Positions 30,981 through 37,386 of a stretch of 64,000 bases of DNA are shown here, one piece after another. Position 1 is the first letter of the stretch, and each line of letters opens with the position of its first letter. The DNA comes from Bacillales bacterium (GTDB lineage: Bacteria; Bacillota_I; Bacilli_A; Izemoplasmatales; UBA1188). Under the pieces are notes generated by a model. That model was not told the DNA's origin, made no database searches, and saw only the letters and a list, made by a program, of their open reading frames with translations. The position numbers were made by a program, and so were the translations under genes. The stretch covers positions 14,332-78,331 of the forward strand of contig JACKCW010000002.1 of assembly GCA_020633845.1 (NCBI GenBank). The letters run 5' to 3'.

Positions 30981-31553
30981 ATGAAAAAAGATCTGCGAAT
31001 AGTAAAGACAGAACGAAACATTAAGAACGCTTTTGTCCAACTCATTATGGAAAAAAGTTATAAGAACGTAAAAATAAAAGATATTGTCGAAAGAGCGATG
31101 ATAAACAGAAATACTTTTTATCTGCACTATTCTTCCAAAGAAAATCTGGTGGATGCCGTCATCAACGATGCAACAAAAACACTAAGCGAAAGACTGAATC
31201 CTCGGCGTAGTTCACCTATCATCAATGACACCGAAGTTATTTCTGTTTACATAAATAAACTTCTGGAAATATTAAAAGAATATAAGTCACTTCTAAAGGC
31301 TGTTCTTCTGGACCCGGGACTTACCGGGTACTTCTTTTCTTTTAAATCAACTCTTACTGAAAGATTACTTAATTATGTCGATAAATCTTTGACAAAGAAT
31401 AAAATCATTGTCAGCTTTGCTTTATCCGGTTTATATGGTGTTATAGAGAGATGGATAATGTATGATGATTTAACACAAAAAGATATTTCTGAAGAATGCG
31501 CTAAACTTTGCGTAGCCTGCGTGAAAGGTGCTTCATATAAAGATAAAAGGTGA
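30981..31553 (+). CDS. TetR/AcrR-family transcriptional regulator
   Basis: N-terminal HTH (IVKTERNIKNAFVQLIMEKSYKNVKIKDIVERAMINRNTFYLHY). Confidence 0.85.
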   Translation: MKKDLRIVKTERNIKNAFVQLIMEKSYKNVKIKDIVERAMINRNTFYLHYSSKENLVDAVINDATKTLSERLNPRRSSPIINDTEVISVYINKLLEILKEYKSLLKAVLLDPGLTGYFFSFKSTLTERLLNYVDKSLTKNKIIVSFALSGLYGVIERWIMYDDLTQKDISEECAKLCVACVKGASYKDKR

Positions 31554-31568
31554 CAAAATGTCACCTTT
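31546..31568. terminator. Bidirectional terminator between the TetR gene and the ABC ATPase gene
   Basis: AAAGGTGACA / AAA / TGTCACCTTT. Confidence 0.6.
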
Positions 31569-32350
31569 TATAATGCTATATTGGCATCGCCGTCATCATC
31601 AAACTTCTTAAGTAGGTCTTCTTTGGTCAGCGTCTTTTTTTCATCTCCGGAAACATCAAAAATAATTTTTCCTTCTTTCATCATAATTAATCTGGTTCCA
31701 TAGTCAATCGCATCTTTCATATTATGAGTGATCATAAGTGTCGTTATTTTGCTTTCCTTGACCACTAGATCCGTAATTGATAGAACCAATTTTGCTGTTT
31801 TTGGATCGAGAGCCGCTGTGTGTTCATCAAGAAGCAGAATATCCGGTTTCGATAAAGTGGCCATCAGGAGAGTTAACGCCTGTCTTTGTCCACCGGATAA
31901 CAATCCTACTTTTTGATCCATTCTCGTATCAAGTCCTAAATTAAGTGTTTTAAGCGATTCTGCAAACTTTGTTCTGAGTTTTTTGTCGAATCCCCAACGT
32001 AATCCTTTCTTTTTATCTCTTCTATAAGCCAGCATCATGTTTTCAATAATCGACATTCCAGGAGCCGTACCTAAATTCGGATCTTGGAATACTCTTCCTA
32101 AATACTTCGCTCTTTTATGCTCATCAATAGAAGTAACATCAATTCCCTTAATCATTATTTTCCCGTAATCTAGGTTTATTACTCCTGATATTGCATTCAT
32201 CAAAGTAGATTTCCCGCTTCCGTTTCCACCGATTATGGTTACAAATTCTCCCTCTTTAACCGAAAGAGATAGGTCATCAAGAGCGATTCTGTCGTCTAAT
32301 GGGTTGTTAGTCAAATTAAATGTTTTCTTTGCGTGTTCAATCTCTAGCAA
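31568..32350 (-). CDS. ABC transporter ATP-binding protein (COG1101-type)
   Basis: Walker A GGNGSGKST, signature LSGGQRQ and Walker B LLLDEHTAALD. Confidence 0.88.
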   Translation of the reverse strand: MLEIEHAKKTFNLTNNPLDDRIALDDLSLSVKEGEFVTIIGGNGSGKSTLMNAISGVINLDYGKIMIKGIDVTSIDEHKRAKYLGRVFQDPNLGTAPGMSIIENMMLAYRRDKKKGLRWGFDKKLRTKFAESLKTLNLGLDTRMDQKVGLLSGGQRQALTLLMATLSKPDILLLDEHTAALDPKTAKLVLSITDLVVKESKITTLMITHNMKDAIDYGTRLIMMKEGKIIFDVSGDEKKTLTKEDLLKKFDDDGDANIAL

Positions 32351-33344
32351 GGCCGTTCCCTCCTATTACCTGTTTTTTATTCTTCTTGATATGCGATATA
32401 ACAAGCACCACCACAATTAAAACGGCATAGAGAAGTTTTAAATAATGTGGCTCTAGAAGGCCGGTATTTATTACTGTCGATATTATCATGTAGTAAATAA
32501 TAGCTCCAACAACTACGGCTATCAGATTACGTTTGAAAGTTTTCCTTCCAACAATTGCCTCACCAATAATTATGGAAGCCAGTCCAATTACAAGAACTCC
32601 GACGCCCATATTAGAACTTGTACTTCCGGAAACTTGCGAACTAAGTCCACCTCCCAAAGATATTAAAGCGTTCGATATTGCTAAACCAAGAATAGTCATG
32701 TTATCCGTATCTATCCCTTGCGCTCTAGCCATTACCCCGTTCATACCGGTAGCTCTGACACCCATACCTATTTCGGTTCCATAAAAATAATATACGATTA
32801 TCATTACTGCTACGGTGATGACAATGAGAAGTAAAATCGCCGAATACAGCGGTTTAAACCAAGATAAACCCAAAGTTGAATTGAAGAAAGCATAAAGGGA
32901 ATAGTAGAAACGATTACCTATTGATGTAGTAATATAATTCGTGTTGGATGTGAGTATGTTAAAGGGTTGACTAGAAGTCTGTGCCTTATAAATACCCATA
33001 ATGACAAGATTGATTGTAAAAAGCGCGGTCATAGTAATGATACCGGATAATAAAGCCGGTATCTTTAATTTAGTACATAAAAGGCCAGTAACCGAGCCGG
33101 CAAAAAATCCGGCTACTGATGCAAAAAGAAGGGCGATAAACGGATTGACCCCGCTATAAACAAGGACAGCGGTTACTGCTCCCCCAAGGGTGAAACTGCC
33201 CTCGGCTCCGAGATCGGCAAAATCTAATATTCTATAGGAAAGAAAGATGCCGAGAGCAAGCATTGCATAAGGAAGCCCGCTTGAAAAAGTATCAAGGGCG
33301 ATTCCGGTAACAATTTGCCATCCGGTTTGCGCCAAAACTAACAT
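32337..33344 (-). CDS. ABC transporter permease (COG4120-type)
   Basis: A polytopic, Gly-rich, BPD_transp_2-like protein that sits between the SBP and ATPase genes. Confidence 0.8.
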   Translation of the reverse strand: MLVLAQTGWQIVTGIALDTFSSGLPYAMLALGIFLSYRILDFADLGAEGSFTLGGAVTAVLVYSGVNPFIALLFASVAGFFAGSVTGLLCTKLKIPALLSGIITMTALFTINLVIMGIYKAQTSSQPFNILTSNTNYITTSIGNRFYYSLYAFFNSTLGLSWFKPLYSAILLLIVITVAVMIIVYYFYGTEIGMGVRATGMNGVMARAQGIDTDNMTILGLAISNALISLGGGLSSQVSGSTSSNMGVGVLVIGLASIIIGEAIVGRKTFKRNLIAVVVGAIIYYMIISTVINTGLLEPHYLKLLYAVLIVVVLVISHIKKNKKQVIGGNGLARD

Positions 33345-33345
33345 G

Positions 33346-34317
33346 CTAGTTACCCTGAAGCGCGCTTCTTACAGTATCAGGGTTAAGTCCTATTGCAGTA
33401 AGACTGGTTTCGTTTAAAACCACCAATAAATCGCTGAGTCCGTTTCCGACCGGGATTTCCGCTACTGATTTTCCATTTAATATTTCGACAGCCATTTCTC
33501 CGGTTTGAACGCCTAGAGCCGCGTAATCTATACTGTATGTCACACAACCGCCTTTGGTTGTCATTGATTCTTCGCCGCATACTGTTAATATTCCGGCATC
33601 AATCATTGCATCGGCAATAGTTTGAATATTTGATGCTACTAGATTGTCCGTCGGAAGGAATAATGCATCAATATCCGAGTTACTGATAGCTGTTAATGTT
33701 GCGTTTAATTCGGATACTTCATTAACTGTCCAGGTTTCAAATCCCAGGTTCTGGCTTGTGGCTTCCGTTTGAGCAGCGGTTGCTTGAACTTGCGAATTAA
33801 CCTCGGAAGAATGATATAAGACACCAATTTCTGTGGCATTTGGAAGAATCTTTTTTACCATTTGAATTTGCTTGGCAACATCACTTGCATCAGATGTACC
33901 AGTAACATTGTTATCAGTTACATCAAGAGCCGTTACCAGGCCGGCAGCCACCGGATCAGTTACGGCTGTAAAGAGAATTGGGATATCTGATCCTTCGTTT
34001 TCTCTCGCGTTTTTAAGAGCGACAGCGGCATCAGTCGCGATACCAAGAACGATGTCACAACTTCTAACAAGTTCTGAAGCATATGAGTTTAAAGCAACTG
34101 AATCAGCCTCTGGATTTCTAAATTCAATAACAATATTATCTCCATCGACGAAGCCTCCGTCGGCTAACGCTTCTTCAAACCCAGTCGTGCAAGCATCAAG
34201 AGCGTCGTGTGTTACTAGTTGGAGAATACCAACTGTGGTTGTCTTTGTGCACCCAGCAAGGCTAAAAGACAAAGCTAACGTGAATACCAAACTTAATACA
34301 GTAATAATTTTTTTCAT
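33346..34317 (-). CDS. ABC transporter substrate-binding lipoprotein (COG2984 / ABC_sub_bind type)
   Basis: Lipobox FSLAGC, and the sequence ILQLVTHDALD...LFTAVTDPV is typical of this family. Confidence 0.8.
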   Translation of the reverse strand: MKKIITVLSLVFTLALSFSLAGCTKTTTVGILQLVTHDALDACTTGFEEALADGGFVDGDNIVIEFRNPEADSVALNSYASELVRSCDIVLGIATDAAVALKNARENEGSDIPILFTAVTDPVAAGLVTALDVTDNNVTGTSDASDVAKQIQMVKKILPNATEIGVLYHSSEVNSQVQATAAQTEATSQNLGFETWTVNEVSELNATLTAISNSDIDALFLPTDNLVASNIQTIADAMIDAGILTVCGEESMTTKGGCVTYSIDYAALGVQTGEMAVEILNGKSVAEIPVGNGLSDLLVVLNETSLTAIGLNPDTVRSALQGN

Positions 34318-34346
34318 ATAATTTCTCCTTTTTTAAAGTTTTTTTC

Positions 34347-34380
34347 AAATAAAAATGCGTTACTACCGAAGTAATAACGC
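34347..34380 (-). terminator. Leader terminator (attenuator) upstream of the ABC importer
   Basis: Minus-strand RNA GCGUUAUUAC-UUCG-GUAGUAACGC (10 bp, C(UUCG)G tetraloop) followed by AUUUUUAUUU. It lies 30 nt before the SBP start codon region. Confidence 0.75.
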
Positions 34381-34482
34381 AAAATTATATAGGAGGGGGC
34401 CGTTATTACTTCTAATACTTAATTGTCGTATTATCTGTAATAACTGGAGGGGGAATACTTCTACTTTAAAAAGCCAAGTCGA

Positions 34483-34551
34483 TTACAGATTGCTCGGATA
34501 ATAATAGTAGAAGTAATAATATTGGCATGATTTAGCTGATTTTATATTCAT
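34483..34551 (-). CDS. 22-codon Tyr/Phe-rich leader peptide MNIKSAKSCQYYYFYYYYPSNL
   Basis: AGGAGG SD 5 nt upstream of the ATG at 34551 and TAA at 34485..34483. It has eight consecutive aromatic codons, and their sequence is repeated in the downstream RNA elements. Confidence 0.7.
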   Translation of the reverse strand: MNIKSAKSCQYYYFYYYYPSNL

Positions 34552-34581
34552 AGTATCCTCCTAAACTACCAACTTTTCCTA

Positions 34582-34609
34582 ATTATATACCTAGATTAAA
34601 TAAAATCAA
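34582..34609 (-). promoter_or_regulatory. Promoter of the leader/ABC importer operon (TTGATT-16-TATAAT)
   Basis: The -35 at 34609..34604 overlaps the ATPase stop codon, and the -10 lies at 34587..34582. Confidence 0.55.
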
Positions 34610-37386
34610 GACTTTTTTAAAACTTTTTTGATTTGTCTTACCAAAAAAGCGATTTCATGAACCACAAGCGGCAAAATAGATATTCCAAGAGTAATCAACC
34701 ATTCTTGCCAAGTTAGGTTGGCGGTTGAAAATAGTGTTCTGACTGAAGGCACTTCAATCACGAAAAGTTGAAGGGCAATACCGAAAAGGAAGGCGATAAG
34801 CATCATCCGGTTTTTATCTTTAAATACATGAACAAAAGATTTTCTGGTATTACTCATACCAATCATATGGAATAATTCAGCAAAACCGAGAGAAGTGAAG
34901 GCCATGGTTTGAGCTTGGAAAAGATAAACCGGGTCAGAATAAAGAGTTCTTATGGCATTATATGTGTATGCATCATTAAGCCAAGCGGTAGCAAGGAAGC
35001 CGATAAAAACACCAATGCTAATTACAAGGCCATAAAGAAGTGTGGTTCTCATACCACCGTTCGCGAATATTCCCTCTTTTGGATCACGAGGACTATCACT
35101 CATATTATTTGGATCCTTCGGGTCCATACCAAGCGCAATAGCCGGAAGTGAATCGGTTATAAGATTTATCCATAAAAGATGGATAGCAAGAAGCGGAGCT
35201 GGAAGTCCTATACAAATAACCGCGAACATTACCAAAACTTCGGCTATATTGCTGCTAATTAAGAATATAACGGTCTTTTTGATATTGGAGTAGATTCCTC
35301 TTCCTTCTTCTACCGCTTTCTCGATAGAAGCGAAATTATCATCAGCTAAAACCATATCGGAAGCTTCTTTTGATACATCCGTTCCGGTGATACCCATTGC
35401 AATACCGATATCCGCTCTTTTGAGGGACGGAGCATCGTTAACTCCATCACCGGTCATTGCGCAGATATTGCCGTTTTCTTGGAACGCTCTAACAATTTCC
35501 ACTTTGTTTTCCGGCGATACTCTGGCAAATACTCGCGCGGTTTTACATTTTTCTCTTAATTCTTCCGGAGAGAGAAGGTCAATATCCTTTCCTTGAAGAC
35601 AATCCTCTTTTCTCTCCACAATCCCAAGATCATGAGCTATCGCAAAAGCTGTATCAATATGATCCCCAGTAATCATTACGGTCGTAATTCCGGCATTTCT
35701 AAATTTAATTACCGCCGGTTTAGCTTCCGGACGAGCCGGGTCAATCATCGCCACTAGGCCGACAAAAATTAGTTTTTCTTCTTCTATAGACTCTTTTTCG
35801 TCATAAGCAAGCGCTAGAACACGCAAAGCTTTTGAAGCAAAAAGTTCGTTTATTTCATATATTTTTTCAACATCTTTTTCAGTTATATTTCTGACTTTAC
35901 CGTTTTCAAGAATCCTATCAGTATGAAGAAGAATACTATCTAAAGCTCCTTTTGTATACATAATAGACTTGTCATCATTAACAAAATGCATAGTAGACAT
36001 CATCTTTCTCACACTGTCGAAAGGAAGTTCGTCAATTCTTGGATGGGACTCCGATAAATCTTTTTTATGCATGTTAAATTCGTTAGAAAAAGCGACTAAT
36101 GCAATCTCTGTCGGATCGCCGAATAATCCTTCATCAATAGTTGCGTTGGAGCAAAGAGACATTCCTCTTGCCAAAAACTTTAAATCCTGATTATCATTTT
36201 CCTCATTGAAATCATCGCTTTTATATATACTCCCGTCAACATAAGCTTCGAGAACAGTCATTTTATTTTGCGTTAAGGTTCCGGTTTTATCCGAACAAAC
36301 AACACTAACCGCCCCGAGAGTTTCCACGCTGGCCAGTTTTCTTACAATAGTATTGGCCTTAACCATTCTTTGAACACCAATTGAAAGAACAATGGTGACA
36401 ACGGCTGGAAGTCCTTCCGGAATAGCTGCTACCGCAAGAGCAATTGATGAAAGAATCGCTTCAATCCAAGATTGTATATCTCCTTGTCCGTGATCAACAA
36501 AAATCCACACGATATCGGCAATTAAAACAGCGACAACCACCACTAAAGTTAAAATTCCCAATGTCTTGGATAATTTAGCCAACACTTTTTGAAGTGGGGT
36601 CATTTGTTCTTCAGAATCTAGGGCTTTGGCTATTTTACCGATTTCGGTGCCCATTCCTATTTCTGTGACAATACCGATACCTCTTCCGTATACAATCGGG
36701 GTCGACATGTATACTATATTACATCTATCACCAATTCCGACCGGTTTCGAGAAAGTATACTTTGCATCTTTTTCGACCGGCACCGATTCTCCGGTCAAGG
36801 AAGATTCGTTCGCCTTAAGATTATGAGATTCGATTAGTCTCATATCGGCACCGACAGTGTCTCCTTCTTCTAGAATGACAACATCCCCTCTTACCAGTTC
36901 GCTTGATCTAATTTTAATTCTTTCTCCATTTCTAATAACTAAAGATTCCGGAGAAGACATACTTTTAAGAGCGTCTAAAGATGTTTGTGCCTTGACCTCT
37001 TGAATTGTTCCGATTACGGCGTTCATGATAATTACCGCGAGAATAATAACTACGTCCGGCCAGTCTCCGGCCTCGACGAAACTAAAATGCCCATAGGTTC
37101 TTACATATTCGATAGTATCAAAAATAGAAATGCCTATTGTAAGAATAATGGCTCCGAAAAGCACAAAAATCGTGGGGTTATTCATCTGTTCGAAGAATAT
37201 CCTTATCCACGATTTTTTCTTTTTTTCATCAAGCTTGTTAAGACCGTCTCTTTCCAGCCTTTTTTTCGCTTCAGCGCTTGTTAAACCAGACTTTGAATTG
37301 GTTTCTAAAGCATTTATTGCTTGTTCAATTGTAAAAGATTCGTAAGAAATCTTTTGTTTACTGTCGGCAGCGTTTATAGCCTCCAT
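34606..37386 (-). CDS. P-type (type II, PMCA/SERCA-like) cation-transporting ATPase; probable Mn2+/Ca2+ exporter
   Basis: CSDKTGTLT phosphorylation motif, TGES, MITGD, GDGVNDAP and about ten TM helices. It is preceded by a yybP-ykoY riboswitch. Confidence 0.88.
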   Translation of the reverse strand: MEAINAADSKQKISYESFTIEQAINALETNSKSGLTSAEAKKRLERDGLNKLDEKKKKSWIRIFFEQMNNPTIFVLFGAIILTIGISIFDTIEYVRTYGHFSFVEAGDWPDVVIILAVIIMNAVIGTIQEVKAQTSLDALKSMSSPESLVIRNGERIKIRSSELVRGDVVILEEGDTVGADMRLIESHNLKANESSLTGESVPVEKDAKYTFSKPVGIGDRCNIVYMSTPIVYGRGIGIVTEIGMGTEIGKIAKALDSEEQMTPLQKVLAKLSKTLGILTLVVVVAVLIADIVWIFVDHGQGDIQSWIEAILSSIALAVAAIPEGLPAVVTIVLSIGVQRMVKANTIVRKLASVETLGAVSVVCSDKTGTLTQNKMTVLEAYVDGSIYKSDDFNEENDNQDLKFLARGMSLCSNATIDEGLFGDPTEIALVAFSNEFNMHKKDLSESHPRIDELPFDSVRKMMSTMHFVNDDKSIMYTKGALDSILLHTDRILENGKVRNITEKDVEKIYEINELFASKALRVLALAYDEKESIEEEKLIFVGLVAMIDPARPEAKPAVIKFRNAGITTVMITGDHIDTAFAIAHDLGIVERKEDCLQGKDIDLLSPEELREKCKTARVFARVSPENKVEIVRAFQENGNICAMTGDGVNDAPSLKRADIGIAMGITGTDVSKEASDMVLADDNFASIEKAVEEGRGIYSNIKKTVIFLISSNIAEVLVMFAVICIGLPAPLLAIHLLWINLITDSLPAIALGMDPKDPNNMSDSPRDPKEGIFANGGMRTTLLYGLVISIGVFIGFLATAWLNDAYTYNAIRTLYSDPVYLFQAQTMAFTSLGFAELFHMIGMSNTRKSFVHVFKDKNRMMLIAFLFGIALQLFVIEVPSVRTLFSTANLTWQEWLITLGISILPLVVHEIAFLVRQIKKVLKKS

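Follow-up and report, generated by a model that had tools for sequence, protein, structure and literature searches.

Leader-peptide attenuation is a textbook mechanism of amino-acid control that is rare in Bacillota. In the his operon leader (hisL) of Escherichia coli and Salmonella, six RNA segments pair either as A:B, C:D and E:F or as B:C and D:E, with termination being the default when the leader is untranslated. The E. coli pheA and pheST leaders (pheL and pheM) are Phe attenuators. Among Bacillota, His leader-peptide attenuators have been documented or predicted in the Bacillus cereus group, Peptostreptococcaceae and Erysipelotrichales (PMC9413887, PMC2965389), and a Leu attenuator peptide belongs to the ilv-leu operon of Staphylococcus aureus (PMC5794164). 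A Phe-type leader, uORFC-13-1, has been described from comparative analysis only; it precedes aroF in Acholeplasma, whose lineage is related to Bacilli (PMC8632094). The Phe-Tyr-Phe leader aroR of Corynebacterium glutamicum is reported to respond to Phe limitation and not to Tyr availability (Neshat et al., 2014, summarised in PMC11802643). Transporters of the COG2984/PF04392 family are known under T-box control, by Trp in the case of Streptococcus suis trpX (PMC9382623), and also under His T-boxes (Lactobacillales) or HisR (PMC9413887). Here we describe a leader located in a 64,000-nucleotide (nt) stretch, referred to below as the window, of contig JACKCW010000002.1 (positions 14,332 to 78,331; assembly GCA_020633845.1) of a Bacillales bacterium assigned to Izemoplasmatales. 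The element precedes an ATP-binding cassette (ABC) importer operon with a COG2984/PF04392 substrate-binding protein (SBP) and, judging from its sequence, is quite probably a Tyr-responsive, ribosome-mediated, his-type leader-peptide attenuator of an aromatic amino-acid importer.

The leader is located on the minus strand, as are all its features given below. It begins with a promoter-like sequence, TTGATT-16-TATAAT (34609..34582), matching the consensus at 10 of 12 positions in a promoter scan. The Shine-Dalgarno (SD) sequence AGGAGG (34562..34557) is separated by a 5-nt spacer from the ATG at 34551, which opens a 22-codon open reading frame (ORF) encoding MNIKSAKSCQYYYFYYYYPSNL (34551..34483, stop codon included). 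This ORF contains eight consecutive aromatic codons, seven for Tyr and one for Phe (34521..34498, segment A), that represent the proposed sensing site; it is the only Tyr-run small ORF of the window. An intrinsic terminator (34380..34347) comprises the arms E, GCGUUAUUAC (34380..34371), and F, GUAGUAACGC (34366..34357), a UUCG loop between them and the U tract AUUUUUAUUU. It was called as an 11-base-pair (bp) stem by the terminator scan, which returned 3 terminator-like sites in 1.4 kb versus 0.7 expected. The regulated operon (31568..34317) codes for the TrpX-like SBP (34317..33346), preceded by its own SD at 34330..34325, the permease (33344..32337) and the ATPase of the importer (32350..31568). 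Neither reading of the minus strand nor the promoter scan revealed a promoter between the terminator and the SBP start, and the operon therefore needs read-through. The sequence-only reading of this stretch had listed the promoter, SD sequence, leader ORF, terminator, complementarities and pyrimidine tracts, and all of them were confirmed base by base, coordinates included.

Among the GTDB representative genomes only distant SBP homologues (at most 43% identity) were found, none of them with a leader; closer relatives (41–58% SBP identity) were taken from Logan, ENA and JGI assemblies. Searching upstream of these related SBP genes, a check proposed along with the original reading, revealed a Tyr-rich leader ORF together with a terminator and an antiterminator at all 21 loci, the window included, that have an SBP identity of at least 41% and enough upstream DNA, and the 21 loci encode 16 distinct leader peptides. 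Each leader contains 5–8 Tyr codons and 0–4 Phe codons clustered within 6–10 codons, and each is in frame with an ATG. Examples from the relatives are MLKQSTISFQYYYYYYYFETKL, MIKQMNSKLYYYYYYYYQS, MNKKSTMSRQYFYYYYYPISL, MNKRSQNLFQSYYRYAFYYTYSN and M..FNTYYAYYYYYPRELxF, as well as MQLTKSFTFSYFYYYFQVSVVNNE, MFKTLLNKIKSSFYYYFYYYFPSGIVITTLGVC, MSVSSVKQIANFAYFYFYYYR, MKKSIFKIANAQFYYYYYFPSVYRE and MKANLSFSRFYYFFYFQVNVVSNE. The N-termini of the leaders are unrelated and the choice between UAU and UAC is variable, while the Tyr run remains constant, which argues for a regulatory leader rather than a functional micropeptide or a chance ORF. An SD-like sequence is present upstream of most leader ORFs, being weak or distant at three loci (L021, L023 and L037). 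Every related locus carries a -35/-10-like pair directly 5' of the leader ORF and an intrinsic terminator directly 5' of the SBP gene. Since this arrangement is repeated in 20 other loci with different sequences, it is far beyond chance; the feature is very probably functional. The Tyr-rich leader ORF is absent from all of the about 30 loci with an SBP identity of 39% or less. The core of the earlier proposal, a ribosome-mediated tyrosine attenuator acting on a COG2984-type transporter, is thus strongly supported, both by the 21 assessable loci and by the Tyr/Phe T-boxes found at the same place in distant homologues.

In the window, three exact reverse complements connect the segments of the leader RNA. 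Within the codon run, UUAUUACUUCUA (34519..34508) is complementary to UAGAAGUAAUAA (34414..34403) of segment D over 12 bp (run:D), and UACUUCUACU (34515..34506) to segment A', AGUAGAAGUA (34465..34456), over 10 bp (run:A'). The third pair, D:E, joins GAAGUAAUAACG (34412..34401) to CGUUAUUACUUC (34379..34368) over 12 bp. Segment B, AUCUGUAAUCGACUUGG (34490..34474), covers the end of the leader ORF, with its final two sense codons and its stop codon (34485..34483), and the next 9 nt. Segment C, CCAGUUAUUACAGAUAAUAC (34447..34428), is the 5' arm of an anti-antiterminator hairpin C:D and has B as its alternative partner, and segment D, GUAUUAGAAGUAAUAACGG (34418..34400), is the 3' arm of this hairpin, with its core (34412..34401) being the antiterminator strand. 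The heptamer UUAUUAC of the codon run recurs in segments C and E. The 236-nt leader RNA folds at -56.4 kcal/mol versus -38.7 +/- 4.0 kcal/mol for shuffled sequences (z = -4.4; none of 200 shuffles was as stable). Its minimum-energy fold contains the C:D hairpin and pairs the codon run with A' and not with D. With a ribosome stalled in the middle of the run and the transcript ending before the 3' arm of the terminator, the minimum is B:C (15 bp) plus D:E (12 bp). The B:C duplex has an energy of -14.8 kcal/mol versus -6.0 +/- 2.2 kcal/mol with shuffled B (p = 0.001).

Fold, duplex and alignment comparisons were made over 11 distinct loci. With a ribosome stalled mid-run and the RNA ending before the terminator 3' arm, B:C plus D:E was the minimum in 10 of the 11, and C:D plus the terminator helix E:F was the minimum in 10 of the 11 with a ribosome at the stop codon or for the free full-length RNA. 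The constrained folds of the window and nine other loci thus reproduce the his-type sets, A:B, C:D and E:F versus B:C and D:E. Defining the tested region by a uniform rule, from the 5' arm of C:D to the hairpin midpoint, B:C exceeded its shuffled-B controls (p < 0.05) at 10 of the 11 loci, with a summed z of -11.6, and the B sequences of different loci are unrelated (AUCUGUAAU, GUCGUUAAUAAC, AGAGAACUUAUG, GUCGUUUUACCUA and others). The position of B relative to the ribosome footprints is also conserved: at 10 of the 11 loci no more than about 15 nt separate it from the stop codon, so that a terminating ribosome would cover B and one stalled early or mid-run would leave it free. The C:D hairpin is kept in all 11 loci, and the D:E helix is present in 10 and is 75% paired across A2, an unsupervised MAFFT alignment. 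For the terminator helix, pairing over the 11 loci reaches 90%, and 9 of its 11 pairs show compensatory changes on both sides. When structures derived from the window were scored on A2, the terminated structure was 71% paired versus 35–52% with slid partners, and the read-through structure 72% versus 32–45%.

Another conserved element is the small hairpin P0 (34497..34468), in which CCGAG (34497..34493) pairs with CUUGG (34478..34474) and is followed by C and U5 (34472..34468). The motif CCAAG/CCGAG...CUUGG-N1-3-U3-5 is found in 10 of the 11 distinct loci, with U4-5 in nine of them and U3 in L034; its 5' arm directly follows the Tyr run, its 3' arm follows the stop codon, and the TGG is invariant in A2. 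The loop and 3' arm of P0 constitute segment B, which makes P0 the counterpart of A:B in hisL.

The course of events that we infer from this arrangement, including stalling on the run, the order of folding, a pause and the direction of the response, would be as follows. The promoter at 34609..34582 would fire and a ribosome would translate the 22-codon leader. On the model of the his and trp leaders, P0 and its U run probably hold RNA polymerase until the ribosome arrives and melts P0. Under Tyr-replete conditions the ribosome would reach the stop codon and bury B (34490..34474). On an untranslated leader, or after departure of the ribosome, the Tyr run would pair with A' (34465..34456), a proposed clamp that closes P0 around B. 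Either of these default routes would lead to C:D and then to the terminator E:F (34380..34357 plus the U tract), so that transcription would end before the SBP gene. When charged tRNA-Tyr is scarce, the ribosome would halt on the first codons of the eight-codon run, leaving the run masked and B exposed; B:C (15 bp) would then occupy C, D would take the 5' arm of the terminator (12 bp), no terminator would form, and the importer operon would be transcribed. The single Phe codon of the run may provide a minor Phe input. Termination is expected to be the default for an untranslated or vacated leader, because the run can pair with A' or with D.

In 9 of 11 loci the antiterminator-minus-terminator energy moves towards antitermination when the ribosome stalls. 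In L021, L023, L033 and L037 its sign flips with ribosome position, so that a simple equilibrium switch holds there; for the window itself such a switch had to be rejected. The check proposed with the sequence-only reading, folding with 34498..34521 held unpaired, gave no flip and the terminator still formed, and the same was true when everything up to the front edge of the stalled ribosome was masked. The antiterminated fold is the minimum solely for a transcript ending before the 3' arm of the terminator; with E made and F still missing, D:E is the minimum whatever the state of the ribosome.

Several points weigh against the his-type scheme. The full-length window RNA favours the terminator in all ribosome states, by 2.0 kcal/mol for a stalled ribosome, 3.8 kcal/mol for one that has reached the stop codon and 8.5 kcal/mol for the free RNA, and for a transcript ending at D the hairpin C:D beats B:C. 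Since equilibrium folding of the window never flips and C:D wins at D, the switch there must rest on the order or kinetics of folding, and the deciding event, as in the classical trp and his models, must be whether B:C or C:D is already in place when E emerges. Our own co-transcriptional simulation, based on stepwise minimum-energy folding, findpath barriers and ribosome masks, was discarded as unreliable, its outcomes being non-monotonic with the barrier threshold and including pairings across the ribosome. The slide control on A2 is somewhat inflated, because a single member supplied the structures and because UAY repeats still give some pairing when slid by +/-3. One locus (L016) appears to use a direct B:E antiterminator instead of B:C and D:E, and another (L034) has a longer ORF and shows no switch in silico. 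All sequences come from metagenomes or metagenome-assembled genomes. Finally, it is by deduction that we assign a Tyr-only rather than a Tyr-plus-Phe specificity to the leader, a pausing role to P0 and a substrate to the transporter. Taken with these points, the detailed six-segment wiring is only slightly favoured for the window itself.

That the codon run is itself an RNA pairing element, as had been claimed for the window, holds family-wide: summed over loci, the z-scores are -6.5 for run:D and -4.3 for run:A', and one or the other pairing is significant at nominal p < 0.05 in 9 of 11 loci. A partner for run:A', just 3' of the U run, is found in the window, L015, L016, L017 and L034. The wiring originally proposed built on this pairing alone, with the competition between run:D (12 bp) and D:E (12 bp) as the only switch and no role for B:C or C:D. 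The perfect 12-mer of the window, the significance of run:D there and in L017, L021 and L033, and the free-RNA minimum-energy folds of L023 and L033, which contain run:D together with the terminator, all agree with such a three-element model, but it leaves the strongly conserved B:C complementarity unexplained. The C:D hairpin, present in all 11 loci, forms locally before the terminator is transcribed, and D is therefore sequestered whether the codon run is masked or not. Besides, run:D complementarity is absent in L015, L016 and L026, and the minimum-energy fold of the window engages the run with A'. The three-element model is thus unlikely to describe the switch. What can be retained of it is the run as a pairing element that would make termination the default on an untranslated or vacated leader, with capture of D by the run being a plausible auxiliary route in the window and the predicted default in L023 and L033; what it omits is the conserved C:D and the B:C pairing that depends on ribosome position.

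It is also possible to regard P0 and its U run (34497..34468) as a true early terminator that aborts ribosome-less transcripts, forming a second, translation-coupling checkpoint. The stem followed by 3–5 U at 10 of 11 loci fits this idea, and the 5' arm lies within the coding sequence, so that an advancing ribosome would melt P0. However, a stem of only 4–6 bp with a loop of 9–30 nt is weak for an intrinsic terminator, and P0 was not called by the terminator scan. We regard this function as very unlikely, and it would be compatible with the his-type attenuator rather than opposed to it.

The weakest alternative takes the leader ORF to be either incidental or the coding sequence of a functional micropeptide; read-through would then be set by a UAY-binding protein or by a tRNA or small-molecule riboswitch, or would be uncontrolled. 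It can draw on the facts that translation of the ORF is predicted from sequence, that UAU/UAC repeats form AU-rich stretches of low complexity in a genome that is itself AU-rich and that a Leu-run ORF exists in an alternative frame (34528..34466). It is most unlikely, because 16 distinct leaders have retained the Tyr frame with its ATG, mostly also with an SD, despite the drift of N-termini and synonymous codons, and because conservation and an SD are both lacking for the alternative-frame ORF. Moreover, the stop codon keeps its place relative to segment B, no Rfam family including the T-box matches, and the repeats are contiguous in-frame triplets, unlike the spaced protein-binding triplets of the TRAP and HutP kinds. 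The alternative-frame ORF, MPILLLLLLLSEQSVIDLAF, overlaps the leader ORF on the minus strand, and in its frame the Tyr run becomes a run of Leu codons. This ORF was rejected as a second sensor, since it lacks an SD and its start codon is not conserved in the relatives, and it appears to be a by-product of the UAUUAU repeats.

The absence of a T-box motif, stated in the sequence-only reading, was borne out by a covariance-model search, in which RF00230 had no match at E <= 10 in 34200..34800. The curated Rfam 15 leader families (e.g., Trp, His, Leu, Thr and Phe) likewise had no match in this region, where the search returned only three chance-level matches to unrelated families (E = 1.6–7.5). 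A Rfam scan of 18 loci gave no match above the gathering score in the leader regions of the six Tyr-leader loci among them.

T-box leaders are located directly upstream of homologous PF04392 SBP genes in four distant loci (L001, L004, L006 and L012), with RF00230 scores of 97–134 bits. These homologues share 35–39% SBP identity, and the T-box takes the position of the Tyr leader. In L004 and L006, the T-box that directly precedes the homologue has the Tyr codon UAC (GAA-UAC-A) as its specifier, as does the T-box of the second paralogue in L001; the specifier of the remaining T-box paralogues is the Phe codon UUC. The occurrence of Tyr and Phe T-boxes on the same gene family indicates that this branch of TrpX/HisX-type transporters serves aromatic amino acids and is induced by uncharged tRNA. 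The leader peptide would achieve via the ribosome what the T-box achieves directly. Two tandem PF04392 SBP paralogues, each with its own T-box, one Phe (UUC) and one Tyr (UAC), are encoded at L001:2696-5447, L004:1430-3960 and L006:1317-3834, which suggests that they are substrate-specific SBPs sharing one permease and ATPase.

Compared with the described systems, the leader resembles hisL in having a run of codons for a single amino acid within a short ORF, six alternating segments, an upstream candidate pause hairpin and predicted termination by default. It differs in its proposed specificity for Tyr and not His, in preceding an ABC importer and not a biosynthetic operon, in its unrelated sequence and its low-GC uncultured Bacillota host, and in having the additional clamp between the codon run and A' and the reuse of UUAUUAC in C and E. 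With pheL, pheM and uORFC-13-1 it shares an aromatic-codon-rich leader ORF followed by a terminator, but those leaders carry UUU/UUC runs and serve biosynthesis or a tRNA synthetase, whereas here a UAU/UAC run precedes a transporter; uORFC-13-1 is set apart by its published description, with a Phe run and an aroF rather than an ABC importer context. Like aroR, the leader would be a ribosome-mediated attenuator with Tyr codons in an aromatic amino-acid context, but aroR has a single Tyr codon between Phe codons and belongs to the biosynthetic aroF of an actinobacterium. The Tyr/Phe T-boxes of the four distant loci and the T-box of S. suis trpX sit in the same place before genes of the same family, with a terminator opposed to an antiterminator and the charging of an aromatic tRNA as the signal; the T-box, however, reads uncharged tRNA via the specifier codon and the T-box bulge, while here the ribosome would be the sensor. 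The His and Leu leaders of Bacillota show that classical leader-peptide attenuation occurs there next to T-boxes and at times in their place, but those leaders are specific for His or Leu, belong to biosynthetic operons and are unrelated in sequence.

A full-text literature search of incomplete coverage retrieved neither a Tyr-run leader peptide, validated or predicted, nor leader-peptide control of COG2984/PF04392 transporters, and because of this coverage it provides absence of evidence only. New in the present case are the predicted Tyr specificity, the transporter target, the lineage and the sizeable family, while the mechanism is classical; the paradigm is therefore extended and not changed. 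It seems reasonably likely that an undescribed class of Tyr-specific attenuators of a 'tyrL' type is the standard regulator of the aromatic ABC-importer clade in uncultured Bacilli, where it replaces the Tyr/Phe T-boxes of its neighbours, reuses the codon run (UUAUUAC) in the anti-antiterminator and terminator, and synchronises polymerase with the ribosome by the CCAAG/CUUGG-U run hairpin. A dedicated Tyr sensor would fill an amino-acid gap, as the nearest case, aroR, is reported not to be Tyr-responsive. If this assignment is true, a Tyr or aromatic-uptake label could be given to a whole COG2984/PF04392 transporter clade of uncultured Bacilli, several from human-gut metagenomes; its members are currently annotated merely as 'ABC transporter substrate-binding protein'. 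The family would also provide a natural example of a T-box and a leader peptide swapped on one gene family within Bacillota, useful for studies of the origin of attenuators, and its compact size (about 230 nt) and many natural variants would make it suitable for kinetic studies or as a reporter of Tyr-tRNA charging.

A translational layer, in which two CCCCCUCC tracts (34453..34446 and 34399..34392) would pair with SD sequences, had been suggested as a weaker addition to the attenuator. The last two C's of the first tract are part of segment C. For the second, both the window and L017 have minimum-energy folds in which its CCUCCUA pairs with UAGGAGG of the leader SD; on this modelling the tract could, as a weak possibility, shut off further leader translation. 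Comparable tracts are found in only 2–3 of 11 loci, tract 2 being conserved in L017 only and replaced by CCUUCCUC at the same place in L034, so the suggestion is weak for the family as a whole.

A conserved near-palindrome, (A)TGTAA(A/G)CGTTTTACA, immediately precedes the -35 box of the leader promoter in a subgroup of the loci with a Tyr leader (L021:1103-1116, L023:912-925, L030:779-792, L033:824-837, L058:342-355, L059:338-351 and L060:352-365). It resembles a cre- or LacI-type operator and could represent a second, DNA-level control layer. It is not present in the leader region of the window; a search allowing up to three mismatches gave only chance-level matches elsewhere. The tRNA genes found beside two of the related loci encode tRNA-Arg and are irrelevant.

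Homologues of the importer from Ilyobacter (L003:2880-2990 and L005:250-300) have a long 5' region with a terminator-like hairpin (CCCCGUAAC.../GGGGAUUUUUUU) before the SBP gene. These upstream regions contain no Rfam match and no leader ORF; a candidate Ile-run leader was dismissed as an artefact, as the 'ORF' starts inside the TTGACA -35 box.

Upstream of the leader in the window, a gene for a 926-amino-acid Ca-type P-type ATPase (37386..34606) ends within the promoter-like site, the -35 box of which overlaps its stop codon (34606..34609). There is no terminator between this gene and the leader, so that polymerases reading through from the ATPase gene would run into the leader as well. At the other end of the ABC operon, a gene for a TetR-family regulator (30981..31553, plus strand) is oriented convergently. 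It has no known link to the transporter, but the same arrangement at the locus with the 58%-identical SBP (L015:3382-3927) may reflect conserved synteny.

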